Translations under genes and position numbers: made by a program | NCBI GenBank assembly: GCA_016191285.1 | Contig: JACPPA010000021.1 | Coordinates: forward strand, 14,473 to 78,472 | Reading direction: 5' to 3' | DNA: 64,000 nt | Source of the DNA: Gammaproteobacteria bacterium | GTDB lineage: Bacteria; Pseudomonadota; Gammaproteobacteria; Ga0077536 | Shown: positions 7,801 through 64,000 of the stretch, piece after piece | Position numbering within the stretch: the stretch's first letter is position 1 | How the letters are laid out: every line of letters begins with the position of its first letter | Notes under the pieces: model-generated | Database searches by the model: none | The model's input: the letters and a program-made list of their open reading frames with translations, nothing else | What the model was told of the DNA's origin: nothing

Positions 7801-8048
7801 CCAACGACAGCGCCGTGAAAGTGTTGGGCGACGAGGCGCTACGCACGATCGCGCGCGAACTGGTCAAGACGGTGCGCGCCAACGTCACCATCGATTGGAC
7901 GATACGCGACAATGTCCGCGCCCAGCTTCGTGTGCTGGTCAAGCGCATCTTGCGCAAATACGGCTATCCCCCGGACAAGCAAGAGAAGGCCACGCAAACG
8001 GTATTGGAGCAGGCCGAGGTGTTATCCGCGGAGTGGGCGGGGGTGTAG
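4872..8048 (+). CDS. hsdR: Type I restriction enzyme R subunit HsdR (1058 aa)
   Basis: Helicase motifs ([10 protein letters not shown] Walker A; [15 protein letters not shown] box), size and operon context. Carries an in-frame palindromic element at 6104-6152 that encodes [15 protein letters not shown]. Confidence 0.9.
6104..6152. repeat. GC-rich palindromic element inserted in-frame in hsdR
   Basis: cccctcaccccaaccctctcccgctgaggggcgaggggg lies between the conserved TIQKFF and [12 protein letters not shown] blocks. Same element type as hsdM 789-832. Confidence 0.55.
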
Positions 8049-27000: not shown

Positions 27001-30000
27001 CGGCGAGCCGTTGGAAATCCGCGGCCTCATCGGCGTCGATATCGAGATGGCGAAGCTGCACTTGCGCCTGGGTCCACGCGAGAGTCTTCGCGCGATCGTA
27101 CGCGCTGCGATCATGGTGCTTGTCGATGAGATCGAGCAGCGCCTCGCGCGACGAACTGACCACGGTCCAGAACGCAACGCGCGCGACTTTACCCGACGGG
27201 ACTCGCACCCGAACCCTGAGTGAAAAGATCGGATCGAGCACCGTGCCAACGCTGTTCGACAGCGGGTGATCGTCAAGCATCGCCGCCGCGGTGCCGATGG
27301 TGCGATTCCGACCGATGAACCGCGCGCGATCGGATTCGTATTGGGGATCTGCCGTGATCTCGCCCTCAACCACCGCGAAATGCGCGGCCCAGATTGGCGG
27401 CTCGTCCGGCGCGCGCGGACGGCGAGTCGCAATCAAGGCGCCGTATTCAGCCAGATATTCGGTTTGTACAAAGAGTTTGGCGAACGCGGGGTGCGCCTGA
27501 TCGGCGGTCGGCGTGGCCAACACCACTTCAGCGTAGGTGGTCAGTTCGATCTCACGCCATCGGCGCCCACTGTTGACGAGCGACACGCGCCGCACCTCGC
27601 CATCGGCCTCACCGGAGACCAGCACGTCCAACGTGGTCGTCAACGCGCCGTCGCGGCGGATGAATTCAGCGCGATCCTCGGCGAAGATCACTTCGGTATC
27701 GAGAGCGCCACCGATCGGTAGCGTGCTTGCCGACCACACCGCCCCCTGGTGGACGTCCCGACAGAAGATGAACGAGCCCCAGTCGTCACGCGTACTGTCC
27801 TCGCGCCAGCGAGTCACCGCCACCTCACGCCACCGGCTGTAACCCGAACCGGCCGCGGTCAACATCACGGCGTAGCGGCCGTTCGACAATAAATGCGTGA
27901 GCGGCGCATCGCCGGCCGCGACGCGGCGCACGGTGGGCGTCACGGTGCGCGCCTCGCCGGCGGACGCTTTGACTTCTTCGGCGCGCGGGTGGGTCACTGC
28001 CACGTCGCGTGGCAAGCGCTCCTGCAGCAACAACTCACAGGCTTGAATGATCGGTTCACGATGAAACCGAGTACGCATCTGACCGTCATGCAAGGCGTTC
28101 GCGATGGCAACGATCGTCATGCCTTGATGATGGGCCATGAAGTTACGCACGATCGCGACTTCCGAGTCGGCGGGCAGGCGCGTACGCGTGAAATCGAGCG
28201 CCTCATAGAAGCCGTAGCGGCCGCGCGCGCCCATCGCGGCCAGTCGCGTGTAGTTCAAACGTGCGCCGTGCGGATCGATCATTGTCGCCAAACCCGTCGC
28301 GTAGGGCGCGATGACTAAATCCTCCGCGAGGCCGCGCTTCAAGCCCAGACCGGGCACGCCGAAATTGGAATACTGATAGGTGAATTCGAGATCGCGCGCG
28401 TTGAACGCCGACTCAGAGATACCCCACGGAAGATCCAACGCGCTGGCATAAGCCTGTTGGCGTTCCACCACCAGACGATTGGTTTGCTCCAAGAGACTGC
28501 CAAGCGGCGCACGCATGACCAGTGACGGCATCAGATATTCGAACATCGATCCCGACCACGAGATCAGCGCCGAGCCCTGGCCAACGGGTGTCGCGGCGCG
28601 GCCGAGACGAAACCAGTGACGAGTCTCGACATCGCCTTTGGCGATCGCAAAAAGACTGGCCAGGCGCGCCTCGGAGGCGAGCAGATCGTAGCAATTGGGA
28701 TCGAGGCTGTTATCCATCAGCGAATAACCGATCGACAACAATTTGCGTTTAGGATCGAGCAGAAACGCGAAATCCATGGCGAGTGAAAAGGTGCGCGCGG
28801 TATCCGCCAGCGCTTGCAAGCGGTGCTTCAGAGAAGCTAGCGTCGCTGTCGGCTGCAGTCGATCGCGCGCGTGCTCGGCCACCGTTTTTTTCAGCGCGGT
28901 GAGCCAGAACACGAGATCCGATGCGCTGTCGTCGACGGGTATTAGTGTGTCGGTTGCCTTGATGGCCTTATCGGCCAGGCGCGTCAAGCTCGGCGCCAAC
29001 GTCGCGATCGCCTGTGCACCCGCCAACTGGGCTTCGATCTCGTCAAGGATGGACGCGAGTTGCTGCCCGCGTGCGGCGTTCGCGGCAGGCAGCGCGGTGA
29101 GTGTCGCGCGCGCCAACGCGAGTGTGTCGCTGAGCGCTTGGCGCGGGTCCAGTGCCAGCGTGGTCTCCCGCCACATTTCGCAGGCCGCGGCGATCGCGAG
29201 CAGATGGCCGGCGAGATTGCCGCTGTCGACCGACGAAACATAGGCCGGCGGAAGCGCCTGCAGATCTTTGGTCCCATACCAATTGAAGAAATGGCCCTTG
29301 AATCGCTGGAGTTTATGCATTGCATCGAACGTCGCTTCCAAGCGTTCGATGGTGTCGATGGCGCCAGTCCAGCCGAAATCGCGGGCGGCAACGACGGATA
29401 GCAAATAGATCCCGATGTTGGTCGGCGATGTGCGATGGGCAATGACGGGCTGGGGATCTTCTTGGAAATTGTCCGGCGGTAAGCAGTTGTCCGCAGCGGT
29501 CACGAAGGTCTCGAAAAACCGCCATGTGCGGCGCGCGATAAGGCGGAGTTCGCGCCGGTCAAGTTCGGACATTGCGCGCTCGGGTGTGACGGCTGGCGCG
29601 CGACTAATCCATAGGGCCAATGTTGGCGCGGCGAGCCATAGCGCGGCCAAGGGCAGGACCAGCGGCCACGCGGCCGGCGCCAGCGCGAGCCCGCCCGCGG
29701 TCATGAGCAACGCCAGTGAAGTGCCGCCCACCATCTGCTGATAAAACCCGTGCCTATTGAGCCGCGGACTCCCAGAAGCCTGAGCAGCGGTGGTCCATTC
29801 GAGCAAATGACGGCGCGTTGCGAAGCAGCGCCTTAGTGTGCGCAGAATCGCGTCCCCCATCCGCCACGTTTGATCGGTGAGGAAGACCACTGCGAGCAGG
29901 GTCCGGGTGGCAGCAAGCTTAAGGTCGGCTGCCAGCGCCCGCAGATGATTACCCAGACGAATGCCGGAGCGACGCGGCAGCACGGCGAACAGTGGCGGTA

Positions 30001-44529: not shown

Positions 44530-44919
44530 TCAGCTTGTCATCGATGCTCGCGGATCGAAGTTATGCGGAACACGCATGAAAAGGAGTTTGGCGGGCCCAT
44601 CAAGCACACGGGTGCGATGGCCTTGGCCGCCAGTATCGTCCGCCATGAACATTTCACCGGGTCCCCATTGTCGAATCTCGCCGTCGTTCATCTCAACTTC
44701 GAGGCGACCGGTGAGTACTACGACGAATTGCCGATTCGGCGCCACATGCCAATCTTGATTCAGCCCAACCGGTAGCTCAGCGAGTATCGCGCCGGCCTCG
44801 AACGGGCGCGACAAATGATAGGTGTAACCTGCATCGGTCTTCGACTCCGGGAACGGAATATCGATCTCTTCGAAGCGCGAGACGTGATTGTCCGTTTCGT
44901 AAAATCGAATGATCTTCAT
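44530..44919 (-). CDS. Cupin-domain protein (129 aa)
   Basis: MKIIRFYETDNHVSRFEEIDIPF...WHVAPNRQFVVVLTGRLEVEMNDGEIRQWGPGEMFMADD. GAGGA RBS. Confidence 0.6.
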   Translation of the reverse strand: MKIIRFYETDNHVSRFEEIDIPFPESKTDAGYTYHLSRPFEAGAILAELPVGLNQDWHVAPNRQFVVVLTGRLEVEMNDGEIRQWGPGEMFMADDTGGQGHRTRVLDGPAKLLFMRVPHNFDPRASMTS

Positions 44920-45089
44920 AGCGGTTTTCCTCTTTGAACGAATAGCAGCGATTGCTTTGTAATCTAAATGGACGAGCATCGATACCGGCCAGGTTAATAT
45001 GATGCGATAGGCGATGTAGATTGCGCTATCGCCGTCCCGGCGAAATAAAGACCACTTCATGGATTCCGGCTTACGAGGCCGTATAAAAA

Positions 45090-46114: not shown

Positions 46115-47462
46115 AGCTCCAGCGCGTAAGGGGTTTGCTTGAACACGATACCTTCACGCGAGAGGCGCACGCCCATGCGGCAGGCCGCCGCATAGATCAC
46201 CTTCGGACCGGCGAATTTCGGTAGCACGTCATACACCAGTCCGGTCAGCACGTTGCCGCCCGCCACCGATTTATCCTTGAGGATACCGTTATAGAGCAGA
46301 TAGATCGTCCGACCTTCGTGGGTGCCTAGCAGCGGCGAATCGCTTGTGCCGGTGTAGCCGCTGCCGGTTTCCGCGAACCACACAAATTCGGCGAGCTGGG
46401 CGAAGGTGACATTGGCGCGGATCTGGCCTTCGGCGGTGAAGAGTGGCTCAGCCGAGAGGCGGCAGAACTGGAAGCCGCCGCCGAGGCCGGCTACGACTTG
46501 TTCTTTCGTGTTGATGTAGCCCATGGTGACGCGCTTCACGCGTTCGGTAGTCACGTTGCGAGCAATATAGAACCACATTGTTTGCGGAACGATGCCGTCC
46601 TTCACGTCGGAGAGATAGCGCTTCAATCTCGGCATGTTATTGCCGTCCTCACCCCACCAGATGCGTCCATCCTTGTCGAGCTCTTAAAACTTCGCTTTTG
46701 ATACTCGCCAATACATGCCTTTCCCTGGGCCTGAGATCACTCGGCCCGAAGGACACGAAACCGAATACATTCCTTCCGAGTAGTAATTGCGAGCTTGTAG
46801 GTCCCCGGATGCTCAAGGCCCGCGTGGATCGCCACTTACATTCTTGTAGCGTGCGGTGGCTTCGTCCCCGCGAGGTAAAAGGCTGGGTTTCCATGTCTGG
46901 GCGTCGGTAGCATAAATCACGATGTAATCGTGATCTTCTGACAGATGCCGAGCTGAGTTTTTTGGCGAAAAAATCTTTTGCCACAATACCGTGGCTATAA
47001 ATTTCTCGTGCCAAAAATTTCATCCATTAACAGCCGCAGAGTCGCCACCTCGTTATCGTCAATCGAAATAAAAATCGTCCCGTCGTCGCGCAAGAACTGC
47101 TTTAGCAATAGGAGGCGTGGATACATCATGCACAGCCAGCGATCATGCCGGTCCAACGTCTCGCCTTCCTTGCCCACCACCTCGCCCAGCCATTTGCGAA
47201 TCTCCGGGCTGTTGACGTTATCGTTGTAAGCCCAACCTTCGTTGCCGGTGTTATAGGGCGGGTCGATGTAGATGCACTTCACCTGCCCGGCATAGCGCGG
47301 CAGGAGGGCTTTGAGGGCGTGCAGGTTGTCACCTTGTACGATCAGATTGCCGCTATCGGCATCGCCGCAGGACAATTCAGGCACCGGCTCCAGCAAGCGG
47401 AACGGGACCTCCTTGTGATGTTTGACGACGGCTTCTCTTCCGATCCAATTGAGTGTGGGCAT
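46111..47462 (-). pseudogene. N6/N4 DNA methyltransferase (Type III Mod-like, PF01555-type), disrupted by multiple frameshifts/stops
   Basis: N-terminal fragment with IYIDPPYNTGN (motif IV) and FISIDDNE. Middle segment readable only across frames (HDYIVIYATDAQTWKP ... YKNVSGDPRGPWASGDL ... DKDGRIWWGEDG). C-terminal fragment (PRLKRYL...TIYLLYNGIL...GNVLTG...IVFKQTPY). Confidence 0.7.
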
Positions 47463-51632: not shown

Positions 51633-51849
51633 GGGACGGTCCTCCATTGCAGGCGGTTATGACACGGAAGATTATGAGTCAGGGCATTAAGTATAGGCCG
51701 CAATTTGCACGCGCCCGATACCATTGGCGTCCGCGCTGATTTTTCCCGCAGCGTATGCTGCCGCAACAACGCGCTTTCCATCCCCTTGTTTACTAACTCA
51801 ACGGCAGCGCGCGATACTGCCGACGCATGCACTGAAGTAGGAGTTCCCC

Positions 51850-52347
51850 ATGGCGAACAAGAAATCACCGAAGATCGTAAAAATCGATATTGGGCTGACC
51901 GAAACCGACCGCGCGAAGATCGCGGACGGATTGTCCAATCTGTTGGCGGATAGCTATACGCTGTACTTGATGACCCATAATTTCCACTGGAACGTTACGG
52001 GCCCGATGTTCAATACGCTGCATCTGATGTTCATGGGGCAATACACCGAGCAGTGGACTGCGCTTGATCTGATTGCCGAGCGGATCCGCGCGTTGGGGTA
52101 TCCGGCCCCGGGCACTTACCAGGAATTCGTCAAACGTGCCTCGATCCAAGAAATCGCGGGCGCGCCGAAGGCGATGGAAATGGTGCGGCAGTTGGTGATC
52201 GCGCAAGAAGCGACGGCCCGAACGGCGCGGCGTCTGTTTCCAGTGGTGAACGCGGCCGACGATCAACCGACGGCCGATCTGCTGACGCAACGCCTTGAGG
52301 TGCACGAGAAAACCGCTTGGATGCTGCGCAGCTTGCTCGAGGAATAA
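51850..52347 (+). CDS. dps: Dps-family DNA-binding ferritin-like protein
   Basis: LLADSYTLYLMTHNFHWNVTGPMFNTLHLMFMGQYTEQW... ferroxidase-centre residues. About 165 aa. Confidence 0.85.
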   Translation: MANKKSPKIVKIDIGLTETDRAKIADGLSNLLADSYTLYLMTHNFHWNVTGPMFNTLHLMFMGQYTEQWTALDLIAERIRALGYPAPGTYQEFVKRASIQEIAGAPKAMEMVRQLVIAQEATARTARRLFPVVNAADDQPTADLLTQRLEVHEKTAWMLRSLLEE

Positions 52348-52404
52348 ATCTAAACGCGCTTCAACCCCGCACGCAAAGCGACAAGATCTCGCGAAGGAGG
52401 CCGT

Positions 52405-53496
52405 ATGCAAGGTCAAATCGCCGTGATGATGGCGCCTGGTCAGCTCGCGTTCCAGGACTATCCGGTCCCTGATCCAGCACCTGGCGCGCTGGTCGTGCGC
52501 GTGCTGCGCAGCAATGTGTGCGGCAGCGAAATTCACATCTGGTGCGGACACCATCCCACCAAACGCTCTGGCGGTCTTGGTCATGAAGCCGTTGGGATTA
52601 TTGAAAAGCTCGGCGCAGGGGTGACGACTGACCACGCGGGTACGCCGGTTCACGAAGGCGATCGCGTCGTCGCGACGTATTTCATCCATTGCCGACGATG
52701 TCCGCCGTGTCAGCGCGGGCAGGTTCACCTCTGCGACAACGCCTACACCTATTGGGGCCGACAACCCGCGGACGATCCGCATTTCCACGCGACCTTCGCC
52801 ACCCATTGGTACATCCATTCCGCGCAGATGTTCTATAAAGTCCCGGATGCCGTGTCGGATCGCGCGGCGGCGAGCGCGAACTGCGCGCAGAGTCAGGTTT
52901 ATTTCGGTCTCGAACTCGGGCAGGCGCGGCTGGGCGATCGAATCGTGATCCAAGGCGCGGGCGGGCTCGGGCTGAACGCCGCGGCGATCGCCCGCGAAAT
53001 GGGCGCGGAAGTGATCGTGATCGACGCAGTGGCCGCGCGTCTGGCGGAAGCGAAGTGCTTTGGCGCGCACCACGTGATCGATATGAACGCCTATCCAACC
53101 GTTGAGGATCGGGTGGCGGTCGTCGCGCAACTCACCGGCGGCGGGGCCGACCTCTGCCTAGAAGTCGCGGGCGTGGTTGATGCGTATCCCGAGGCGATTA
53201 GGTTATTGCGACCTGGCGGCATGCTGGTCGCGATGGGGATCGTGAATCCGGGTAAAACCGTGCCATTCGATCCGGGCTATGCGGTACGGCGGGGGATCAG
53301 CACGATCGCGACCGTCCGCTACCCTGGCGCGTACCTTAAGAAGTCGCTCGATTTTTTGGTGCGGTACGCGGCGCGCTATCCGTTCGATTCGCTACTCGAT
53401 CGCGATTACCCTCTGGACCAGATCCTACAAGCACTCGATGATTCCGCCGCGCGCCGGGTCACGCGTGCTTCAATCGTGATGCCAGGCGCCCGATGA
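52405..53496 (+). CDS. Zn-dependent alcohol dehydrogenase (MDR family)
   Basis: VCGSEIHIW...GHEAVGIIEKLG zinc/catalytic motifs. Rossmann GAGGLGL. Confidence 0.8.
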   Translation: MQGQIAVMMAPGQLAFQDYPVPDPAPGALVVRVLRSNVCGSEIHIWCGHHPTKRSGGLGHEAVGIIEKLGAGVTTDHAGTPVHEGDRVVATYFIHCRRCPPCQRGQVHLCDNAYTYWGRQPADDPHFHATFATHWYIHSAQMFYKVPDAVSDRAAASANCAQSQVYFGLELGQARLGDRIVIQGAGGLGLNAAAIAREMGAEVIVIDAVAARLAEAKCFGAHHVIDMNAYPTVEDRVAVVAQLTGGGADLCLEVAGVVDAYPEAIRLLRPGGMLVAMGIVNPGKTVPFDPGYAVRRGISTIATVRYPGAYLKKSLDFLVRYAARYPFDSLLDRDYPLDQILQALDDSAARRVTRASIVMPGAR

Positions 53497-55133
53497 TGAC
53501 CGAGATCCCCATCCTGATTGCCGGCGGCGGTCCCGTCGGTACGACGCTTGCCCTCGATCTCGCGCAGCGCGGCGTCGCTTCCATCGTCCTCGAAGAACGA
53601 TTGGCGATGCCGCCTAACCCGAAATGCAACACGACCAACGCCCGCTCGATGGAACATTTCCGGCGTCTCGGCTGTGCGGATGCCATCCGGCGGGTCGGGC
53701 TGCCGTTGGATCGCGCGACCGATGTGGTGTACGCCACCCGCTGGGTCGGTCAGGAACTGACGCGGTATCGCCTGCGGTCCTCACGCGCGGTGCTTGAGCG
53801 GCGCGGTGATTACGGCGCCATCGACGATTACTGGCCCACCCCAGAGCCGCAACATCGCGTCTCGCAGCTCGCGATGGAGCCGGTGCTCCGCGCCCACGTC
53901 CAAAAGTTTTCACAGTGTCAGTATCGCGAAGGTTGGCGCTTTCTGTCGTACACCCAGTCGAGCGAGTTCGTCGATTGCGTCGTACAAGAGATTGCGAGCG
54001 GCGCGGAGCAGCATATCCGCTGCCGTTATCTGGTTTCCTGCGAAGGCGCGCAGAGTCGCATTCGGCGGACGATGCAAGCGACGCTCGAAGGTCGCGAATG
54101 CATTTCCAAGTTCTGCACCACCTACCTCCGCGCGCCCGCGCTCGATACACGCTGGCCGCATGCGCCGGCGTGGATGCATCGCATTTATAACGCGGATGGC
54201 GAGAGTCACATCATCGCCATCGATGGCCGGGAGTTGTGGCTTCATCATTCAATCCTGGGGCCAGACGGCGATCTGGACGCGCACGATCACCGGCCGGCGA
54301 TCGCGCATGCGCTGGGCGCCAATGTCGAGTACGACGTGCTCGGTCAGGAACGGTGGATCGCGCGTGCGATGGTCGCCGACCGCTATCGCAGCGGCCGGGT
54401 GTTTCTATGCGGCGACTCCGCGCATATTTGGATCCCCATGGGCGGTTTCGGCATGAATGCAGGGATCGAAGACGCGGTTAATTTGGCGTGGAAGCTGTGG
54501 GCGACGTTGGCCGGCTGGGCGCCATCGGCTTTACTTGATAGCTACGAGGCTGAGCGGCGATCGATCGGTCAACTCGTCGCGGGTTCGGCGGCGAAAATCT
54601 TCGAAGATCTCTACCGGATCCCAGTGCAGGACCCGCTGTTCGAGGCCATTGGGCCCGCGGGCGACGCCCGTCGCGCCGAGATCGGGCACCTGATCACACA
54701 GCGCAACCTGGCCGAGTTCGACAGTATTGGTATGCAGCTCGGCGTGGCTTATACGGAATCGCCGGTTATCTGTCATGACGGCGCGACGCTACCCGCGTTT
54801 GCCATTAATCGCTACACGGAGTCGTCATGTCCGGGTGTACGCGCGCCGCATTTCTGGCGTGATTCAGGCCGCGCCCTGTTCGATGATCTGGGGCCTGGCT
54901 TTAGCTTGCTCTGCATCGGTCCGCAGGCGCCGGCCGCGGCGAAGCTCATCAGCGCCTTCGAAGCGCGCGGCGTGCCGCTTACCGTGGTGCCGATTGCCGA
55001 ACCCATCGCGGCTGAAAAATATCAGGGCTATCCCTTGATCTTGATTCGGCCTGACCAACACATCGCGTGGCGTTCGATGCAGGAACCGGCCAATCCGCTT
55101 GCCGTGGTCGACACGGTCACCGCACAAATCTGA
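53493..55133 (+). CDS. FAD-dependent aromatic-ring monooxygenase (class A flavoprotein hydroxylase, PheA/TfdB-like)
   Basis: FAD fingerprint IAGGGPVGTTLALDL. GD/DG motifs RVFLCGDSAHIWIPMGGFGMNAGIEDAVNLAWKL. Start overlaps the ADH stop (ATGA). Confidence 0.8.
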   Translation: MMTEIPILIAGGGPVGTTLALDLAQRGVASIVLEERLAMPPNPKCNTTNARSMEHFRRLGCADAIRRVGLPLDRATDVVYATRWVGQELTRYRLRSSRAVLERRGDYGAIDDYWPTPEPQHRVSQLAMEPVLRAHVQKFSQCQYREGWRFLSYTQSSEFVDCVVQEIASGAEQHIRCRYLVSCEGAQSRIRRTMQATLEGRECISKFCTTYLRAPALDTRWPHAPAWMHRIYNADGESHIIAIDGRELWLHHSILGPDGDLDAHDHRPAIAHALGANVEYDVLGQERWIARAMVADRYRSGRVFLCGDSAHIWIPMGGFGMNAGIEDAVNLAWKLWATLAGWAPSALLDSYEAERRSIGQLVAGSAAKIFEDLYRIPVQDPLFEAIGPAGDARRAEIGHLITQRNLAEFDSIGMQLGVAYTESPVICHDGATLPAFAINRYTESSCPGVRAPHFWRDSGRALFDDLGPGFSLLCIGPQAPAAAKLISAFEARGVPLTVVPIAEPIAAEKYQGYPLILIRPDQHIAWRSMQEPANPLAVVDTVTAQI

Positions 55134-55147
55134 AGGAAGGACCGATC

Positions 55148-56023
55148 ATGCAAGAAATCATCGCGCGCAAACTCGCGACCGGCTTATTGTTTGGCGAAGG
55201 GATCCGCTGGAGCGGACACGCCATCGTGTTGTCGGACATGCTAGGCCGCCGCGTCGTCCAGGTAGATCCGATCGTGGGGACCGTGACAACGCTGGTTGAA
55301 ATCGAGAATCAACCGAACGGCCTGATTGCGCTTCCAAATGGCGATCTGATTATTAATTCAATGTTTGATCGCAAATTGCTGCTGCTATCGGAGGGGAAGA
55401 TTAGCGAATACTGCGATCTATCGACGCTCGCGACCGGTTATCTCGGCGATATCGTCGACGACGGACACGGCGGTTATTACGTGGATGACGTGGGCGCGCG
55501 CGTCCTGCATGGCGAGAAGCCCGCGCCGGGCCGCCTCATCTACGTCAGCGCGGACCGCCGCGCCAAAGTCGTTAAAGATCAGCTCGCCTTCGCCAACGGC
55601 GTCGTGATTTCACCGGACGGACGTCGCTTGTACCTTGCAGAAACGATGATCTCGGCCATCAAGGTTTATGCCATTGGATCTCAAGGCGCCCTTGGTGAGG
55701 GCAAAATATTCGCGGATTTCACCGGCACGAGCCGGATCGATGGGTTGACCATGGATGGTGACGAAGGCGTTTGGGCGTGCCTGCTCGACTCCGATCGCGT
55801 GGTGCGCGTGGCGCAGGACGGCAGGCGCACGCACGCGGTGGTGATCCCCGGCGGCGAGCCCGTGACGTGCACCATCGGCGGCGCGGACGGGCGGCAACTG
55901 TTCGTTGCCGCGATCGAAGCGCTCGCCGGCAAAAACATTTTCGAAGAGATGATGGCGAAGCGCGTACGCGCGAATGTGTGGACCGCCGAAATCCCTTTTG
56001 CCAAAGGAAACGCACGTCCGTAA
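55148..56023 (+). CDS. SMP-30/gluconolactonase/LRE-family beta-propeller protein
   Basis: GEGIRWSGHAIVLSDMLGRRVVQVDP..., GVVISPDGRRLYLAETMISAIKVY, DGLTMDGDEGVWAC blade motifs. GAAGGAAGG RBS. Confidence 0.75.
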   Translation: MQEIIARKLATGLLFGEGIRWSGHAIVLSDMLGRRVVQVDPIVGTVTTLVEIENQPNGLIALPNGDLIINSMFDRKLLLLSEGKISEYCDLSTLATGYLGDIVDDGHGGYYVDDVGARVLHGEKPAPGRLIYVSADRRAKVVKDQLAFANGVVISPDGRRLYLAETMISAIKVYAIGSQGALGEGKIFADFTGTSRIDGLTMDGDEGVWACLLDSDRVVRVAQDGRRTHAVVIPGGEPVTCTIGGADGRQLFVAAIEALAGKNIFEEMMAKRVRANVWTAEIPFAKGNARP

Positions 56024-56094
56024 GGTTGCGGCGACGAATTACGCCAACGACAAAGCGCCGCATGGCAAGCCGCGACAAGATCGCCACTGAATCC

Positions 56095-56470
56095 CGTGCG
56101 AACTAAATAGCGAAGCGGAAATACCGTCCACCCTGCGGAGGTTGGGCTTTAACTGCGTCATTCCGGCGTGGTCCCGGCCTGCGCCGGGAGGAATCCAGGA
56201 CATTGAGTTATTCGACTGGGTCCCGGCGTTCCAGGCCGTGTAAAAACTCCAAGTGAATTGGAGCAGCAGGGAACAAGAACCCAGTACACGTCATTCCGGC
56301 GAACGCCGGAATCCAGAAAAAAAGCAGATCCGCGCGCTGCGCAGAGGCCTACTCTGACTGGAAAGCCGGAGTTTCGCTTTGCGAATTCCGGGGTGACGGA
56401 CGGCGGTTCGAGTTTTTACACGCCCTCGTTCGCCGGCACGGACACCGCGCGTAAACCACGACGAAGGTCT
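56095..56470. repeat. MITE-like composite repeat cluster
   Basis: Copy of the 47800-47960 module (56105-56225), plus a VIPAKAGI-type unit (cgtcattccggcgaacgccggaatccag, 56290-56318) and a degenerate third module. Confidence 0.7.
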
Positions 56471-56493
56471 CGAGGTGATCGCCCTTTAAAACT

Positions 56494-56703
56494 TCAATCC
56501 TGGAGGCGGAATCCCAGTTTGATCGTGACTTGCCAGAAGGCGACTTTGCCACTTTTGATCTCCCCGCGGCTCTCGACTACTTCGAACCAGTCCATGTTCT
56601 TGATCGTCGTCGAGGCTTTAGCAATGGCGTTACGCACCGCTTGATCCGAGCTTTCAGTCGAACTACCGGTGATTTCAATTTTTTTGTAGACGTGGTCGCT
56701 CAT
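56494..56703 (-). CDS. Dodecin-family flavin-binding protein (69 aa)
   Basis: MSDHVYKKIEITGSSTESSDQAVRNAIAKASTTIKNMDWFEVVESRGEIKSGKVAFWQVTIKLGFRLQD matches the dodecin consensus (...VIEIVG.S...DWFEV...GHI..G.V.H.QVT.K.GFR). Confidence 0.85.
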   Translation of the reverse strand: MSDHVYKKIEITGSSTESSDQAVRNAIAKASTTIKNMDWFEVVESRGEIKSGKVAFWQVTIKLGFRLQD

Positions 56704-56822
56704 GGAATACCCCCCATTTGTAGGTGTGATTGACGAGTTAAGTATAGGCACGGACCGACCAAGTTGCTCTGAATTCGAGAACAGAGATAATACCTGTCAC
56801 ATCGCCCGGGGAGGCGTATCGG

Positions 56823-59402
56823 ATGCTAGAGGGCGATCTGCTCGAACGCGCCAAGGCGGGCCGTCAGACGCTAATGGTCGGGGCCCAAAGTCGGCTGGAG
56901 GCGCATCACGGCGGGCGCGACATCGTCAAGTTTGTCAGCCGCGAAGTCGACGAGATGCTGATCGATCTATGGCGCACCATTGCCGGCGCCGAGGCATCCA
57001 CGGTCGATCTCGTGGCGGTCGGTGGTTATGGTCGCGCCGAATTATGCCCGTGCTCCGATTGGGACTTGCTGTTTCTGATTCCAGATTTACGCGGCAGGCG
57101 CGTCACCGCCGCGGTTCAAACCTTCGTGAAATTTGTGTGGGACAGCGGCGCCCACCTCGGTCATGCCATTCGCACGCCGGCGGAAACCCGGAAATTCGCG
57201 CGTGCCAATCATCATGCCCGCACCGCTTTACTGGAATCACGTCTGGTCTGCGGCGGCGGCGCGTTATACGCACAGGTACTGCAAAGCTGCGGACAACAGC
57301 ACTGGAGTAAACGCGAGCGCGTTGAGTTCTGCGTGCAGAAAATCGACGAATGCACGGCGCGGCGCAAGGCGCAAGGCGACACTGCATTCGTGATGGAACC
57401 GGAGGTCAAAAATGGCAAAGGCGCGCTGCGCGATGTGAGTACGATTTTTTGGTTGTCGATGGCGTGGTATGGCGTGCCGAGTGCACGCCAGCTGATCGGT
57501 CAGGGCCTGGTCGACGAGGCTGAATTTAACGACTTTGTGCGCGGCCGCGATTTTCTGTGGCGGGTGCGCGCCCAGCTTCACCTCCTCACCGCGCGCGAAA
57601 CCGATCGCCTGCGTTTCGACTTTCAACCCGAGCTCGCGGCCCGTTTCAATTATCGGGACAGCGAAAAATCGAGCGCGGTTGAACGTTTTCTCAAGAATTA
57701 TTTCCTGCACGTGCGAACGATTGCCGATCTCGCCGATATTTTTCTACTGCATTTCAGCGAGCAGATCCGCAAGCCGATGCGGCTGCGGCGACGGCGCAAT
57801 CTGGGTGGCGGCATGGAAGCCCACGGCGATGAAGTCAGCGTGCGCGAGCCACGCGCGTTCGCCGCGGATCCGATTAATCTGCTGCGCATTTTCGTCGAAG
57901 CGCAGAAAGCGCATCGCTTTCTCGACAGTCGCGCGCTACGCATTGTGCGCAAGCATGCGCGCCTGATCGATGCGGGGGTGCGCGTTTCGCCAACGGCGAA
58001 CGAACTCGTACTTACCCTGTTGCGCTCGCCGCGCAATGTCGCCACCGCGCTCAAACAGATGCACGAGACCGGCGTGCTCGGCCGCTTGATCCCCGATTTT
58101 GGCCGCATCACGGGCCATGGCCAATTCGACCGCTATCACCAATACACCGTCGACGCACACACCATCCGCGCCATCGACATCCTGCGCGACTTCCGTCTGG
58201 GCGAAGGCCAGTTCATCACCATGCCGCTGGCGTCGAAGCTGATGCCGACCTTGCAACGCCCGGAGCTGCTCTATATCGCCTTGCTCTATCACGACATCGC
58301 CAAGGGCCGCGGTGGCGATCATTCCGAGATTGGTGAAAGTCTCGCGCGGCGTTTCTGCCATCGGCTGGGGTTATCGGATGACGACAGCGAGCTCGTCGCG
58401 TGGCTGGTCTTGCATCATCTGCGGCTGTCGAAGACCGCGCAGCATTACGATCTCTTCGATGCAGGCGTGATCGCCGACTTCAGTCGTTTCGTCGGTGACT
58501 ACGAGCGCCTGGTCTATTTATTCTTGCTCACCGTGGCCGATGTCACCGCGGTGGGGCCGGGCACCTGGACGGATTGGAAAGGCGCGTTGTTCGCGCAGCT
58601 GTTCCACGCCGCCGAGGCCTATCTGCAGACCGGCCAGATTCACCCGAGCGAGCACGCGGAGCGTCTGGAGTCGCGGCGCAATAGTGTGCTCGCGTTATGC
58701 GCGCCAGCCGAGCGCGCGAGCGTCGGCGCGACCTTGGCAACGGTGTCGAATTCCCTGGCACTGCATTTCCCGCCAGCGCCGTTACTCGAGTTGTGTCGAT
58801 TATTGGAACGTCCGTCGGGAGTACATCTGGCGGTGAATGTGGCACAGGGATTTACGCAGGTGTTGGTATGGGGCAGCGATCGGCGCAAGCTCTTTGCGGA
58901 CCTCACCGCAACGCTAGCGGGCGCTAACACCAAAGTATTGGCGGCACACGCGTATGCGTTGCGCGATGACCGGATTGTGGATGAATTTCATATAACCGAC
59001 GCGAACGACAATCCGGTCAGCGACGCGGACCAAACGATGCGCTTACGAAAACGGCTGGAGCGCGTGCTCGCCGGCGAGGAGCCACCGCCAAACGAGCTGC
59101 CGGTCAAGCCCGATATCTTGATGCGCGCGCAGGCGGTCGAAGTGCGACGGCTGGCCGCGGCAACCAATAGTGTCACCGCGATTGAAGTCGTCGCCGCCGA
59201 TCGCAAAGGCTTGCTGGCTAGTCTCGCCGCCGCCATCGCCGACGCCGGTGTCGATCTCCGCGGCGCCAACATCAGCACCTTCGGCGAGAAGGCCGTCGAC
59301 GTATTCTTTGTCACGGATGACCTTGGTCACGAACTCGACCCAGTACGCATCAACGGTTTGATCGAGCGCCTGCGCGGCGCCGCGGAACTCTCGGGAATCT
59401 AG
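56823..59402 (+). CDS. glnD: Bifunctional [protein-PII] uridylyltransferase / uridylyl-removing enzyme GlnD
   Basis: NTase motif GGYGRAELCPCSDWDLLFL, HD domain (FDRYHQYTVDAHT...LLYHDIAKG), two C-terminal ACT domains, 859 aa, GGGAGG RBS. Confidence 0.85.
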   Translation: MLEGDLLERAKAGRQTLMVGAQSRLEAHHGGRDIVKFVSREVDEMLIDLWRTIAGAEASTVDLVAVGGYGRAELCPCSDWDLLFLIPDLRGRRVTAAVQTFVKFVWDSGAHLGHAIRTPAETRKFARANHHARTALLESRLVCGGGALYAQVLQSCGQQHWSKRERVEFCVQKIDECTARRKAQGDTAFVMEPEVKNGKGALRDVSTIFWLSMAWYGVPSARQLIGQGLVDEAEFNDFVRGRDFLWRVRAQLHLLTARETDRLRFDFQPELAARFNYRDSEKSSAVERFLKNYFLHVRTIADLADIFLLHFSEQIRKPMRLRRRRNLGGGMEAHGDEVSVREPRAFAADPINLLRIFVEAQKAHRFLDSRALRIVRKHARLIDAGVRVSPTANELVLTLLRSPRNVATALKQMHETGVLGRLIPDFGRITGHGQFDRYHQYTVDAHTIRAIDILRDFRLGEGQFITMPLASKLMPTLQRPELLYIALLYHDIAKGRGGDHSEIGESLARRFCHRLGLSDDDSELVAWLVLHHLRLSKTAQHYDLFDAGVIADFSRFVGDYERLVYLFLLTVADVTAVGPGTWTDWKGALFAQLFHAAEAYLQTGQIHPSEHAERLESRRNSVLALCAPAERASVGATLATVSNSLALHFPPAPLLELCRLLERPSGVHLAVNVAQGFTQVLVWGSDRRKLFADLTATLAGANTKVLAAHAYALRDDRIVDEFHITDANDNPVSDADQTMRLRKRLERVLAGEEPPPNELPVKPDILMRAQAVEVRRLAAATNSVTAIEVVAADRKGLLASLAAAIADAGVDLRGANISTFGEKAVDVFFVTDDLGHELDPVRINGLIERLRGAAELSGI

Positions 59403-59440
59403 TGTGGAGTCCCGTAATGAACCCTCATCTATCGACGCGT

Positions 59441-59470
59441 TGCTGGTGTGGGAGCGGCTTTAGCCGCGAA
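59441..59470. repeat. REP-like half-site
   Basis: gtgtgggagcggctttagccgcgaa. Confidence 0.5.
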
Positions 59471-59475
59471 GGCAT

Positions 59476-60414
59476 CTACGTAAACACCACGCGTGGAAAA
59501 TAGAACGACACAATCCAGTTCGGCCTATCGACGATCTCGCTGATGCGAAGATCGCCGCACACCGAGCACAACAGATACGCGTCGACCGCGCGCAGGTGAT
59601 AACGCTTGGCAAGCAGATCGATCATGCCGGCGACAGCGGCTCTGGCGGCTGCCATCAGATCGGGATCGATGCCAGTCGTCACTTCATAACCCGCGATGTC
59701 GAGATGACGACTTACCGGTCCCGGTGTCGTAAAGCGTGGAAAGTCGAGATTCGCGCCTTTCACCAGTTCGAACTTCGCCGCCACCGCACAGGGACTTTCG
59801 ATCGCGGTACCGCAGACTTCGCCATCGCCTTGCGCGGCATGCGTGTCACCCACACTGAATAACCCGCCGTTTACTTCCACTGGCAGATAGAGCTCGGTGC
59901 CCGCCGCGAGATCGCGGATATCCATGTTGCCGCCGACGCGCCGTGGCGGCACCACGGAATGCAGCCCGGCCGCCGCCGGGGCGAGGCCGATGGTGCCGCA
60001 GAAGGGTTTCAGCGGGACGCGGCCGCCGGGACCGTAAAGCGCCGGCGTCATCGACGCGGCGTCATATTTCCAGAGATGCAGATGCGGCTCGGTGAACTGA
60101 TCCGCGAGCAGGCCAAACCCCGGGATATTCGCCGTCCAGCCCCAACCGGATGGGGTGAATCCGAGCAAGGTCACCTTGAGCGCGTCGCCCGGTTTCGCTC
60201 CGTCGATATACACCGGGCCGACCACCGGATTCACTTTCGCGAAATCGAGCCGGGCGATATCAGCGACGGTGGACGCTGGCGTGATCAGCCCGTTCGAGGC
60301 ATCCAGCGGATGGCACTCGACGGTCTCCCCAGGCGCGATGTGCAGCACCGGTGGATTGGCATTATCCCAGCCGTAATGGCCTTGCGCGTGATGGATGGTG
60401 TGTTGACATTTCAT
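59476..60414 (-). CDS. Acetamidase/formamidase (FmdA/AmdA family)
   Basis: Family blocks throughout (GPVYIDGAKPGDALKV, RVGGNMDIRDLAAGTELYLPV, GDTHAAQGDGEV). 312 aa. Confidence 0.85.
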   Translation of the reverse strand: MKCQHTIHHAQGHYGWDNANPPVLHIAPGETVECHPLDASNGLITPASTVADIARLDFAKVNPVVGPVYIDGAKPGDALKVTLLGFTPSGWGWTANIPGFGLLADQFTEPHLHLWKYDAASMTPALYGPGGRVPLKPFCGTIGLAPAAAGLHSVVPPRRVGGNMDIRDLAAGTELYLPVEVNGGLFSVGDTHAAQGDGEVCGTAIESPCAVAAKFELVKGANLDFPRFTTPGPVSRHLDIAGYEVTTGIDPDLMAAARAAVAGMIDLLAKRYHLRAVDAYLLCSVCGDLRISEIVDRPNWIVSFYFPRVVFT

Positions 60415-60570
60415 GCCGCGAACATGAACCGGCGAAGTAGATCTGTCAATTCATTGGATTTCCGTTATCGCTCGGTCATGGCGAAGCAGCGGCACGTACT
60501 CACGCCGTGGACGCCAGCTTCGTTCGAACGTACAGGGAACCGAAGTTCAAGCGGCGCATGCATGCAGGGG

Positions 60571-60765
60571 TCATCGTTGGTCATGCGCATGGTCCGGAAT
60601 CATCCCGTCACGTAAGATTCGCGCCAGCGCCGCGGGCGGACGCTCTTTAACTGGGGCGCTTTTACGGCCAAATTCTGCCGAAGCTACGTGATGAGTCCGT
60701 TCTGGATTAAGTACCCGGTAGTGAACGTCACGCCCTCGCTCTAACGTTATGCAGTCCTTTTTCAT
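60571..60765 (-). CDS. Small hypothetical protein (64 aa), paralog of 61420-61632
   Basis: MKKDCITLERGRD...ASAEFGRKSAPV... The first about 30 nt are identical to the paralog at DNA level (ATGAAAAAG.A..CATAACGTTAGAGCG). Confidence 0.45.
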   Translation of the reverse strand: MKKDCITLERGRDVHYRVLNPERTHHVASAEFGRKSAPVKERPPAALARILRDGMIPDHAHDQR

Positions 60766-61419
60766 CCGGCGCCCAGCATCGCGATGCGCAAGGGTTGCTC
60801 GCGGATCTGATCGTTCAAAGGAGGCGATGCGGTGACCGCTTCTATACAACCGACGCGCAGCAAAGTTCCGGCGGTTACGCTTAGGGAACCTCTGAATAAG
60901 TCCATCCTGGACTTATTCAGAGTACGGGAAGCAAAAAGTATGATTTTTGCTTCCCTTCATTTTCAATGGTTTGCAACCATCGAAAATGGCGGCACCTCCC
61001 TGTGCCGCGGGAAGCTCTGCCATGAATTCAGGGTATCTCGTTGGCACCGGAATTTTTGCGGCAATCTTCGTCGTTATGGTCATCGCGCAGATCTCCGCGA
61101 AGCATTTTCAACCGGTGCTTTACTGGATAACGATTATCGCAACGACGACAGTGGGTACCACATTAGCCGATTTCGCCGACCGCTCTCTCGGGATCGGTTA
61201 TGCCGGCGGCACATCGCTGCTGCTGGCGTTGCTATTGGGGTCTCTCTTTATTTGGCGTCATTTGGCATCGCTCCCTCGGTTCAATAGCGATTGACACCGT
61301 TAACTCACCCGATTGCGTCCGTCATATTGTTCGGCGATGGCGGTGTCGTGAACGCCGAGACCGCAGAACGGCACTCGAAGTTTCGTCGACGCTCCCAAGC
61401 GCCGAGCTATTTTCGTTCG

Positions 61420-61632
61420 CTATTTGTCTCGATTCTTTTTTTGGTGACGCCGATAGTCCGCCACCATCTCGTCAAGCAAAGATTGCGCGAGCCCCTCCGG
61501 GGAACGCCCGGCTACCTGGACGCTTTTGCGGCCGAATTCTTTCGAGGTGACGGTTATTAGCCCGTCGACGACCAGGTACACGGCAGCGTAGGTCGTGCCG
61601 TCGCGCTCTAACGTTATGTTTTGCTTTTTCAT
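61420..61632 (-). CDS. Small hypothetical protein (70 aa), paralog of 60571-60765
   Basis: MKKQNITLERDGTTYAAVYLVVDGLITVTSKEFGRKSVQVAGRSPEGLAQSLLDEMVADY. GGGGG RBS. Confidence 0.5.
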   Translation of the reverse strand: MKKQNITLERDGTTYAAVYLVVDGLITVTSKEFGRKSVQVAGRSPEGLAQSLLDEMVADYRRHQKKNRDK

Positions 61633-61921
61633 ATCGCCCCCTTGCCTTGAGTGTAGACCAAGGATTCGACTTTGGAGAGAGTCATACCCCATTGGACAAG
61701 GCTCAGAGTTGACGGTCCCTTGGCGTGGGGCGCAGTGTTTGCCGTACATCCGTTGGAAGGGGCGAGGAGCGCGAGCACTGGGTACGGGAATGACGCGAGA
61801 TATGGACGTGGACTCGGAATCTTGCCGGTCGCTCAAGGCGCCATCCGCATTGCGCACGATGCCGTAAGTTGGCAAGATTCTCTCGCCTCGCTGTCGAGCC
61901 TGTATCCACTGGAGTTTTCCC

Positions 61922-62422
61922 ATGAAGCAAACATTCAAAGGGCGTCTGTTGGCCATTGCGTTTTTGATCGGCATGACAGGCGGGCAAGTCCGTGCCGCCG
62001 ATGATCCCGCTACCCTCGTCGTTAAAGACTTTATCGCGTCTTGGCAAACTTTCGACATCGACAAAATCATGTCTTACATTGCCGATGACTGTTACTACGC
62101 GAACGAGCCGTCGTTGACCGGCGCAAATCCGGTACTGATAGGCCGGGTAAAAATGCGCGAATTCTTGGCGCCATTTTTCGTACGCGACCCCCTCATCGTG
62201 CCGTTTAAATTCCATACTGAAGTTAAAGACACGATCGCCGGCGGTGGTGGCGTCGTCATTCAGCGCGTGGACAATTTTCAAATCGCCAATGGAAAATTCG
62301 CCGTCAAGGTAGCAGGGCTTTTCAAAGTAAAGGCTGGAAAGATCGTTTACTGGATGGATTACTTTGACGGTGGGGCATTCGGGCCGATATCGACCTTGAT
62401 GTCCAATCTTGCAAAGAAATAG
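61922..62422 (+). CDS. Secreted NTF2-like protein (SnoaL / limonene-epoxide-hydrolase-like fold)
   Basis: Signal peptide MKQTFKGRLLAIAFLIGMTGGQVRA, then ATLVVKDFIASWQTFDIDKIMSYIADDCYYANEP... Confidence 0.55.
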   Translation: MKQTFKGRLLAIAFLIGMTGGQVRAADDPATLVVKDFIASWQTFDIDKIMSYIADDCYYANEPSLTGANPVLIGRVKMREFLAPFFVRDPLIVPFKFHTEVKDTIAGGGGVVIQRVDNFQIANGKFAVKVAGLFKVKAGKIVYWMDYFDGGAFGPISTLMSNLAKK

Positions 62423-62544
62423 CGGAACGCCCGACGCCAAGATTTAGGGTAAACGCAACTATCGAATAGGAAAAAGAAAGGCTAAGGAAACGCCGGCTTC
62501 GCCGCGAAGTTCCGGCATCTACTGGCGGCCGTCCTAAATCTCGC

Positions 62545-62973
62545 TCAGATCTTTTCCCAGTCACGCACCGCGCCGGGAACGATCAGAAATAAGGGATGCG
62601 CTTCCGGCAGCGCGAGATCACGAAATTGCCGGCTCATCTGCGGCGCTCTCACGTCCAGTTTGGCTTTAAGGTGGCGCCACTCGTAAAGCAATTGGCCCGA
62701 CGTCTCCGGAATGTGGTCGACAAGTTCCGGTCGCGAAATTTTAGTCGCATCGAAGCGATAGCCGCGGCGCTGCGCTTCTTCGGCGAGACCGACTAAAAAC
62801 GACCCAATGGTCGCAAGCGGATCGGACTGGGCCTGAAAGCGCAGGAGCTGCGGATGATGGCGGTAGCCTTGGGTGGCGCCCGCCAAGACTTTCTGGGCGA
62901 GGAGCGCCTCGCGCCACGCGGCAACCAAGCCCTTTTGATCGAGGTAGCGCGGATGCACGGTCCACAGTCGCAT
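62545..62973 (-). CDS. Pyrimidine-dimer DNA glycosylase (T4 endonuclease V / DenV-like, Pyr_excise family)
   Basis: MRLWTVHPRYLDQKGLVAAWREALLAQKVLAGATQGYRHHPQLLRF matches the conserved family N-terminus. 142 aa. Confidence 0.75.
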   Translation of the reverse strand: MRLWTVHPRYLDQKGLVAAWREALLAQKVLAGATQGYRHHPQLLRFQAQSDPLATIGSFLVGLAEEAQRRGYRFDATKISRPELVDHIPETSGQLLYEWRHLKAKLDVRAPQMSRQFRDLALPEAHPLFLIVPGAVRDWEKI

Positions 62974-63120
62974 TGTGTGTAGCCTAAGAATTTATACTCT
63001 CGGATTCTATAACGATGCTTTTTTGACACTCGGTTTACGCATCCGCGAACGGAGCGTATTGGGGTTGATGTTCATCAAAATAAAAACAGGCATTTTTATT
63101 TTAAAAATGAGGTTGCGAAA

Positions 63121-64000
63121 TTGACGGACGCGTTTTTCGAAAAGCCAATTCTTAATTCCCCTTACGAGTACCCGTCTCGTCATTGGGAACTGGATGAAGC
63201 GGGTCAGCCGACGCACAGCATTATCGAACGCCGGCGCGGTGCCGAATTCATCACCCCGATCCCCAAGCCTAAAAAACGCAAGGGTGTGGCCGAGCAGGCA
63301 TCGTTAGTCTTCGATGAAGGCAGGGGCCTCTCGACTGGCGAGCAGCAGTATGACCACACCGCGATTATTAATTCCGTTCGGCAGCAGGTCGACCAGTGGC
63401 GGCGGCTACCCAGTCCTAATGATTGGCGAGTTACGCCGGAAACGACCCGTCTGCTTCAGCACTGGCGGCATCACAAGTTCAATAGTGTCCGCCCGTTTTT
63501 CTGTCAGATCGAAGCGATCGAGACCGCCATCTGGCTGACTGAAGTCGCGCCCCAGATCGGCAAGGTGGGCGAAGGTTTTCTCCAGCACCTGATCAACGTC
63601 AACCACGACGCGAACCCGGAACTGATGCGTCTCGCGCTCAAGCTCGCCACCGGCGCCGGCAAGACCACGGTGATGGCGATGATCATCGCCTGGCAGACGA
63701 TTAACGCGGTACGCCACCCGCAGAGCAAGCGCTTCACGCGCGGCTTTCTCGTGGTCGCGCCGGGCCTCACGATTAAAGATCGACTGCGCGTTCTGCAGCC
63801 GAACGATCCGGACAGCTACTACCAGGACCGTGAACTCGTCCCAGGTGATCTGCTGAGTGAAGTGAACCGCGCCAAGATTGTCATTACCAACTACCACGCC
63901 TTCAAGCTCCGCGAACGGATTGAACTTTCCAAAGGAGGCCGCGCGCTATTGCAGGGCCGCGGCGAAGCATTGAACACCCTCGAAACCGAAGGCCAGATGC
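63121..64000 (+). CDS. ResIII-type (Type III restriction Res-like / DEAD-DEAH) helicase, N-terminal part; probable TTG start; gene continues past the window end
   Basis: Open frame from 63121 to the window edge. (M/L)TDAFFEKPILNSPYEYPSRHWELDEAGQPT... N-terminus. Walker A LATGAGKTTVMAMIIAW. Preceded by an unusually AT-rich 120 nt. Confidence 0.6.
   Translation, partial: MTDAFFEKPILNSPYEYPSRHWELDEAGQPTHSIIERRRGAEFITPIPKPKKRKGVAEQASLVFDEGRGLSTGEQQYDHTAIINSVRQQVDQWRRLPSPNDWRVTPETTRLLQHWRHHKFNSVRPFFCQIEAIETAIWLTEVAPQIGKVGEGFLQHLINVNHDANPELMRLALKLATGAGKTTVMAMIIAWQTINAVRHPQSKRFTRGFLVVAPGLTIKDRLRVLQPNDPDSYYQDRELVPGDLLSEVNRAKIVITNYHAFKLRERIELSKGGRALLQGRGEALNTLETEGQM

Follow-up and report, generated by a model that had tools for sequence, protein, structure and literature searches.

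Restriction-modification (R-M) systems of Type III, such as EcoPI of phage P1 (res/mod) and EcoP15I (PDB 4ZCF), are built from two subunits. Res joins a superfamily 2 (SF2) ATPase to a PD-(D/E)xK nuclease, and Mod, in EcoP15I, is a beta-class amino-methyltransferase of 644 residues with a central variable target-recognition domain (TRD). Their mechanism has been summarised in PMC8259958 and PMC4005696. A set of diverged, N4-methylcytosine-type (m4C-type) Type III systems, including the predicted Bpe564I of Bordetella pertussis, has been described by Murray et al. 2021 (PMC8259958). Here we examine a stretch of 64,000 nucleotides from Gammaproteobacteria bacterium, a metagenome-assembled genome (proteins MBI2800725-MBI2800728; lineage Ga0077536; assembly GCA_016191285.1, contig JACPPA010000021.1, positions 14,473 to 78,472), hereafter the window, and in particular a gene that starts on TTG at position 63121 and runs off its end. 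This gene very probably encodes the Res subunit of a two-subunit, Type III-like R-M system of the BPTD_3080 family that lies in a strain-specific segment. The locus is an ordinary accessory R-M system from a family already catalogued, and the edge of the window interrupts it.

The res gene and its product

The window holds codons 1-293 of the 1022 codons of res (63121-64000, plus strand). From 63121 the plus strand reads MTDAFFEKPILNSPYEYPSRHWELDEAGQPT...LATGAGKTTVMAM, with the frame open through base 64000, and translation from the TTG gives (M)TDAFFEKPILNSPYEYPSRHWELDEAGQPT...LATGAGKTTVMAM. The original prediction, made from the DNA letters, had seen a ResIII-like helicase in this N-terminus, and profile searches agree: Pfam ResIII matches residues 128-265 of the 293-residue fragment with 27.9 bits, and the NCBIfam model NF046055, "BPTD_3080 family restriction endonuclease", matches it with 387.5 bits. 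The latter score lies below the curated cut-off of 800 bits, which applies to the whole protein, because the fragment covers only positions 1-278 of the 970 in the profile. A protein search with Res, proposed at the outset as a check on the 293-residue product, returned 5799 homologues; identities among the matches listed are 74-86%, with a maximum of 86%, and several homologues carry the JGI label 'type III restriction enzyme'. No relatives of res were found in 5,426 Escherichia coli genomes in a blastn 'distant' search. An AlphaFold model of the fragment, built from 49 sequences, was poor, with a mean predicted local distance difference test score (pLDDT) of 57.8. For comparison, 80 genome loci with Res homologues of 74-84% identity (L001-L080) were collected from a genome scan and their neighbouring genes were clustered.

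The rest of the gene is found in a 6.7-kb public Logan contig, L081, which was located through an exact match to the protein of the neighbouring glycosylase gene. This contig is 99.97% identical to window positions 61018-64000 over 2984 bp and reaches 3.6 kb past the window end; its last 88 bases (6612-6699) are unlike window 60929-61017, which reflects either a strain difference or an assembly-end artefact. The expectation that the helicase continues beyond the window is borne out, as the frame left open at base 64000 is completed in L081 to an intact open reading frame (ORF) of 1022 residues with the same TTG start. Against NF046055 the full-length protein scores 1374.5 bits over profile positions 1-969, compared with 1401.9 bits for the homologue in locus L004. 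It carries the motifs GAGKT, NDEAHH, QVIGRALRR, and PDF...EIK, all of which are invariant in 34 homologues, and its C-terminus has a weak Pfam RE_endonuc match (18.5 bits, and 24.1 bits in L004). Res is thus predicted from its motifs to be an SF2 helicase with a C-terminal PD-(D/E)xK nuclease. Within the window, the Walker A sequence or helicase motif I, LATGAGKTT (residues 175-183; 63643-63669, plus strand), falls inside the ResIII match, and A176, T177, G178, G180, K181, T182, and T183 are invariant in the 34-homologue alignment. It is preceded by a conserved segment, RPFFCQIEAIET (residues 124-135; 63490-63525, plus strand), which by its position may be a Q-motif-like element; here R124, P125, F126, F127, C128, Q129, E131, A132, and E134 are invariant in the same 34 full-length homologues.

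The lack of an ATG and the probable TTG start, both pointed out in the original prediction, hold. No in-frame ATG, GTG, or TTG lies between the TTG at 63121 and the stop codon TAA at 63010-63012, and a Shine-Dalgarno-like GAGG (63109-63112, plus strand) can be read in the sequence 8 nt before the TTG. A start codon (ATG in 63, GTG in 7, and TTG in 3) stands at the homologous position in 73 of the 79 loci compared, and most of the 79 have no alternative in-frame start further upstream. The N-terminus of the family is itself conserved as M-x-[DN]-x-F-F-E-x-P-I-L-N, and the L006 homologue, for example, starts MTDAFFEKPILN at an ATG. Since the start position is conserved and the GAGG lies 8 nt upstream, the TTG is the true res start and an unremarkable one. 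The odd look of the gene is due to the window edge and not to its biology.

The Mod partner and family architecture

The order of genes in L081 is Pyr_excise (minus strand), Res (1022 residues), MNT (96 residues), HepT (121 residues), Unstab_antitox (100 residues), and the N-terminus of a Mod methyltransferase. Only 141 residues of this Mod precede the end of the contig, and they begin 1.0 kb downstream of res. They match the N-terminus of the Mod found in approximately 65 of the 80 Res loci at 55-92% identity, and are 92% identical to that of L005, with no stop codon in the visible part. The downstream flank thus contains a BPTD_3080 Res followed by a methyltransferase N-terminus and not a housekeeping helicase, and the guess that a further restriction system begins at the window end is supported by the intact Res and the start of Mod.

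Members of the family share a conserved architecture, in which Res (full length approximately 1020 residues) is followed by Mod (approximately 935 residues, N6_N4 methylase PF01555) and often by a UvrD-like helicase of approximately 690 residues; the last of these is present behind mod in approximately 21 of the 80 loci. All three genes recur in this order on RefSeq plasmids of Pseudomonas avellanae and Gemmobacter fulvus, where their annotations read 'BPTD_3080 family restriction endonuclease', 'site-specific DNA-methyltransferase', and '3'-5' exonuclease'. The 80 loci span hosts that include Chlorobiaceae, Nitrospirota, Bacillota, Actinomycetes, Acidobacteriota, Planctomycetota, and Paceibacterota, and the GC content of the Res gene ranges from 0.46 to 0.69 across phyla, following that of the host. 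Res identities of 74-86% across such distant phyla indicate a wide horizontal spread under strong constraint.

The class traits of Mod were established on family members (L053 and L004) and not on the full Mod of this genome. The L004 Mod matches the PADLOC MTase_III model PDLC03632 with 1398.9 bits, and the nearest relatives of known structure are the Type III Mods 6k0w, 4zcf_A (EcoP15I, E-value 1e-11), and 7dsu. In the family alignment, with L053 as reference, DPPY at position 166 precedes DPTCGSGTT at approximately 455, and between them residues approximately 265-430 are hypervariable, with a consensus frequency of 0.30-0.47; outside this stretch Mod is conserved at approximately 0.8-0.97, as is Res throughout. 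These sequence features assign Mod to the beta-class N6/N4 methyltransferases and, among them, to the Type III Mod class; its target-recognition region is hypervariable. A variable TRD paired with a uniform Res is the pattern expected if Mod alone sets the sequence specificity. The locus studied here shares with the BPTD_3080 family (NF046055) the start position, the N-terminus, the helicase and nuclease motifs, the Mod partner, and the order of res then mod. It differs from its relatives in the three toxin-antitoxin genes that separate res from mod, and none of the matches listed exceeds 86% identity to its Res.

Relationship to Type III systems

Both this system and EcoPI/EcoP15I consist of two subunits with an SF2 ATPase and PD-(D/E)xK domain in Res, and the Mods of EcoP15I and of the family alike belong to the beta-class amino-methyltransferases and have a central variable TRD. 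The family Mod, at approximately 930 residues, is approximately 290 residues longer than that of EcoP15I and has a long conserved C-terminal extension. A match of Res to the model NF012027 reached only 17.3 bits, and full-length homology to canonical Type III Res was not found. Because of the divergence of Res, the reversed gene order discussed below, and the longer Mod, we call the system Type III-like and not canonical Type III.

If the analogy with EcoPI and EcoP15I holds, a Mod2Res complex would bind a short asymmetric site, of which Mod would methylate one strand. If the DNA is foreign and unmethylated, Res would hydrolyse ATP, which would allow the complex to leave its site and slide along the DNA, and the PD-(D/E)xK domain would cut where two such complexes meet. 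The family is named after a locus-tag-like label, BPTD_3080, which we take to be a tag of B. pertussis; this serves as a lead only. No link to the family is given in PMC8259958, but the m4C-type systems described there resemble the present one in being diverged, in having Mods with DPPY/F, and in that some are accompanied by an extra helicase-like gene. The resemblance is partial: those systems have an SF2-like extra ATPase 5' of mod, whereas the extra gene here is UvrD-like and stands 3' of mod, and the Walker A sequence of Res is GSGKT in those systems and GAGKT in this one. PADLOC recognizes the family Mod as MTase_III but has no restriction endonuclease model for Res, so systems of this kind would be under-called, either recorded as orphan methylases or missed. 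At the level of the family, the points of modest interest are the divergent Res, the repeated insertions at the res-mod junction, and the wide horizontal spread.

Toxin-antitoxin genes at the res-mod junction

Positions 1-1438 of L081, which would correspond to window coordinates of approximately 66190-67627 if the window continued, contain an MNT/HepT pair and an orphan Unstab_antitox gene between res and mod. MNT matches Pfam NTP_transf_2/Polbeta (NTP_transf_2 E-value 2e-15) and the PADLOC defence candidate PDC-S09, and its ORF overlaps that of the HepT-like RNase (E-value 9.1e-26). Adjacent NTP_transf_2 and HepT-like genes are also the arrangement of MNT/HepT (type VII) toxin-antitoxin modules, from which the L081 pair differs in lying inside an R-M operon and in its NCBIfam MntA/HepT scores of 44.5 and 35.8 bits, below the curated cut-off of 60. 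The Unstab_antitox ORF has no partner toxin and ends only 67 bp before mod.

The res-mod junction is a recurrent insertion point across the 80 related loci. MNT/HepT genes are found there also in L015, L069 (with two MNT copies), and L075, and Unstab_antitox in L013 and L080. Genes of the DinD/Bro-N type occupy it in L003, L038, L054, and L056, and a protein of approximately 484 residues combining Schlafen AlbA_2, HATPase_c_4, and a helix-turn-helix (HTH) domain is encoded there in L014, L018, L026, L058, L062, L063, L072, and L075; small ORFs are present at the junction in some of the 80 loci as well. On the 3' side of mod, UvrD-like helicases, AAA_15/AAA_21 ATPases, and IteA-like AAA ATPases are often found. 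In L022, a Mod N-terminal segment occurs twice behind a single res, at 17064-17453 and 20262-20651, 3.2 kb apart, with a repeated pattern of an approximately 393-residue and an approximately 200-residue ORF; these repeats may represent a duplication of mod or a set of alternative mod modules.

The intergenic region and the divergent glycosylase gene

The 147 bp between res and the divergent glycosylase gene (62974-63120) have a GC content of 0.374. The original prediction had singled out 62990-63120 as strikingly AT-rich for this genome, and the observation is correct: the GC content of that part is 0.366. The 131-bp stretch with the lowest GC in the 64-kb window begins at 62978 (0.359, against a window mean of 0.593 and standard deviation of 0.054), and equally low values are reached by 0.02% of the window's 131-bp stretches, so the AT-richness is both real and exceptional for the window. 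Elsewhere in the window, GC values of 0.42 or less in 131-bp stretches occur only at 44879-45030 and 46888-47088. Most simply, the spacer is presumably the shared upstream or promoter region of res and the glycosylase gene. Of its earlier description as a promoter region, the position between divergent genes stands, but a sigma-70 consensus scan of 62400-63300 returned 0 sites. An Rfam search of the spacer gave no match and thus no RNA element, and it was similar to none of the related loci, so that no conserved upstream element is evident. The spacer does contain a perfect 10-bp A/T inverted repeat, AAAATAAAAA-N6-TTTTTATTTT (63077-63102, separated by caggca), 7 nt 5' of the res Shine-Dalgarno sequence. 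An inverted repeat of at least 10 bp arose in only 2 of 2000 dinucleotide-preserving shuffles, indicating that it is non-random; the related loci do not conserve it upstream of res. A 49-residue ORF at 62975-63124 (plus strand) is presumed to be a chance ORF because it opens right at the start of the spacer and runs across its whole length.

On the other side of the spacer, 62545-62973 (minus strand) encodes a Pyr_excise family protein of 142 residues, a remote relative of T4 endonuclease V, in keeping with the divergent DenV-like glycosylase that had been proposed here. The ORF starts with ATG, its product begins MRLWTVHPRYLD, and the NCBI name of the protein is 'DNA lyase' (MBI2800728.1). 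Residues 1-79 match Pfam PF03013 with 76.3 bits against a cut-off of 23 (E-value 2.4e-21). An AlphaFold2 model has a pLDDT of 87.6, and the top Foldseek pair is T4 endonuclease V (2end/1enk; template modeling score approximately 0.53, E-values 0.22 and 0.95), so the model predicts an endonuclease V fold. Direct similarity to T4 DenV was not detected, as a PDB sequence search gave no hit and an hhalign comparison was non-significant; the link to T4 DenV is therefore drawn from the Pfam match and the predicted fold only. T4 endonuclease V uses its N-terminal amine and Glu23. In a manual gapless alignment, which profile alignment did not recover, M1, R2, W20, R21, and E22 fall on T2, R3, Y21, R22, and E23 of the T4 enzyme, and these five residues are invariant among homologues (39 homologues for M1 and E22). 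Compared with T4 endonuclease V (DenV, a pyrimidine-dimer glycosylase and apurinic/apyrimidinic lyase), structural identity is only approximately 15%, T4 R26 is replaced by Leu, and the N-terminal residue would be Met1 and not Thr2. The protein is thus a predicted endonuclease V-family glycosylase/lyase for ultraviolet damage. The closest relative, at 85% identity, has RecJ, threonine-pathway, and TldD genes around it.

The accessory segment

Both genes lie in a strain-specific segment that begins at approximately 62446 and continues past the window end (62446-64000). Contigs of sister genomes (L163-L168) match window 51787-62445 at 91-93% identity by blastn and show nothing beyond this, and pairwise alignments diverge at approximately 62446-62455, some 25-35 bp past the stop codon TAG (62420-62422) of an LEH/SnoaL-like gene. 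In the sisters an amine oxidase gene (minus strand), a TetR gene, and other genes come after the LEH/SnoaL-like gene, with neither glycosylase nor Res. Because synteny with the sister genomes breaks at this point, the block is accessory. The same comparison revealed smaller differences within the syntenic part. The region 60454-61408, between the formamidase gene and the LysR-fragment region, is approximately 950 bp in the window and approximately 215 bp in the sisters, and approximately 430 bp extra are present at 56054-56488 near the dodecin/GlnD junction. At 60574-60765 lies a copy of the LysR-fragment region, approximately 70% diverged, that also matches positions 61408-61679.

Alternative interpretations

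Several observations weigh against reading this locus as a working Type III-like R-M system. For this genome only 141 residues of Mod are visible and an intact Mod is thus not established, and the three genes between res and mod could uncouple their expression; upstream of res, a relaxed sigma-70 scan of the spacer found 8-of-12 matches at best and no consensus promoter. P1 has mod then res, whereas res precedes mod here, in 80 of 80 loci, and on the plasmids. The family Res profile aligned to EcoPI Res by hhalign over 48 columns (motifs V-VI) with a probability of 33%, a comparison of limited sensitivity given the profile Neff of 1.6 and a single-sequence target. PDB sequence and profile searches with Res returned no relative, and the best PADLOC REase_III score was 19.5 bits. 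As a literature search found no paper containing 'BPTD_3080', restriction activity, recognition site, and methylated base would be assigned by curation and analogy. The first of these points suit a decayed or inactive remnant, with Mod truncated or uncoupled by the toxin-antitoxin insertion and Res a solitary helicase-nuclease without a restriction role. The three small genes that part res from mod do look foreign (codon-usage z of -1.4 to -2.7 relative to 25 window genes, though the genes are short), and res ORFs are split or truncated in L020, L037, L039, L042, L050, L056, and L059. We nevertheless consider decay quite unlikely, because an intact Res of 1022 residues argues for a working Mod, without whose methylation an active Res would endanger the host; insertions between an intact res and mod, such as the DinD, Schlafen-like, and MNT/HepT genes listed above, are common in the family; and the visible Mod is uninterrupted and close to that of L005. 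The divergence of Res from EcoPI Res and from every solved structure, the blindness of the PADLOC models to it, and the gene order would suit a different mechanism, a distinct helicase-nuclease/methylase defence, often three-component with the UvrD-like protein, that makes use of a Type III-class methylase. The conserved Mod extension of approximately 440 residues after the methylase core and the UvrD-like gene of the plasmids and of some loci point the same way. This is also unlikely: the domain logic of Res, an SF2 ATPase with a ResIII match and a C-terminal PD-(D/E)xK domain, is that of Type III Res, a uniformly conserved Res goes together with a Mod that varies in its TRD, the curators at NCBI call the family a restriction endonuclease, and most loci lack the UvrD-like gene. 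In a related and equally doubtful proposal, the BPTD_3080 systems would form a mechanistically distinct, experimentally undescribed Type III-like branch, marked by the res-then-mod order, the divergent Res, the approximately 930-residue Mod with its extension, and the frequent UvrD-like gene, and the res-mod junction may dock toxin-antitoxin or defence cassettes. If so, through MNT-HepT and the orphan antitoxin, an abortive-infection toxin could be linked to how the restriction operon is expressed.

The remaining alternatives concern the DNA around the spacer. The original prediction took the AT-richness as typical of horizontally acquired, H-NS-silenced DNA, and the spacer is indeed the GC minimum of the window within a segment absent from sister genomes. 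That the spacer marks xenogeneic silencing of the H-NS/MvaT type is nonetheless very unlikely, since only the 147-bp intergenic region is AT-rich, and the coding regions next to it have GC contents of 0.58-0.61. The proposed check of GC content and codon usage goes against the earlier claim as well: Res (GC at third codon positions, GC3, of 0.71; z of +0.8), the Mod N-terminus (z of +0.6), and the glycosylase gene (z of +0.5) are all host-like (GC3 of 0.69-0.73, z up to +0.85), and composition lends no support to horizontal acquisition. Among the related loci, only some have AT-rich DNA upstream of res. A functional pairing of the glycosylase with Res, for example with repair coupled to restriction, could be imagined from the upstream region they share and from their common place in the non-syntenic segment. 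It is, however, extremely unlikely, and Pyr_excise as part of the restriction system was rejected for lack of co-occurrence: no Pyr_excise homologue lies near Res in the 80 Res loci, and no BPTD_3080 Res was detected in 80 Pyr_excise loci, where one weak 62-residue match, in L092, belongs to another helicase. The Pyr_excise loci have no conserved neighbour, and the closest glycosylase relative, as noted, stands among housekeeping genes. The glycosylase gene is a bystander.

Other features of the window

The window contains a further restriction gene at 4872-8048 (plus strand), which encodes a Type I R subunit, HsdR, of 1058 residues with HSDR_N, SWI2_SNF2, and T1RH-like_C domains. Res therefore represents a second restriction system in the window besides the Type I HsdR, and marks the onset of strain-specific DNA. 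Among the other genes, a 2830-residue GH94 protein with GH94 supersandwich, GH94 catalytic, and glucoamylase domains is encoded at 24074-32566 (minus strand), and a 1607-residue PAS/GAF hybrid histidine kinase at 16477-21300 (minus strand) lies next to an EAL-domain response regulator at 15163-16473 (minus strand).

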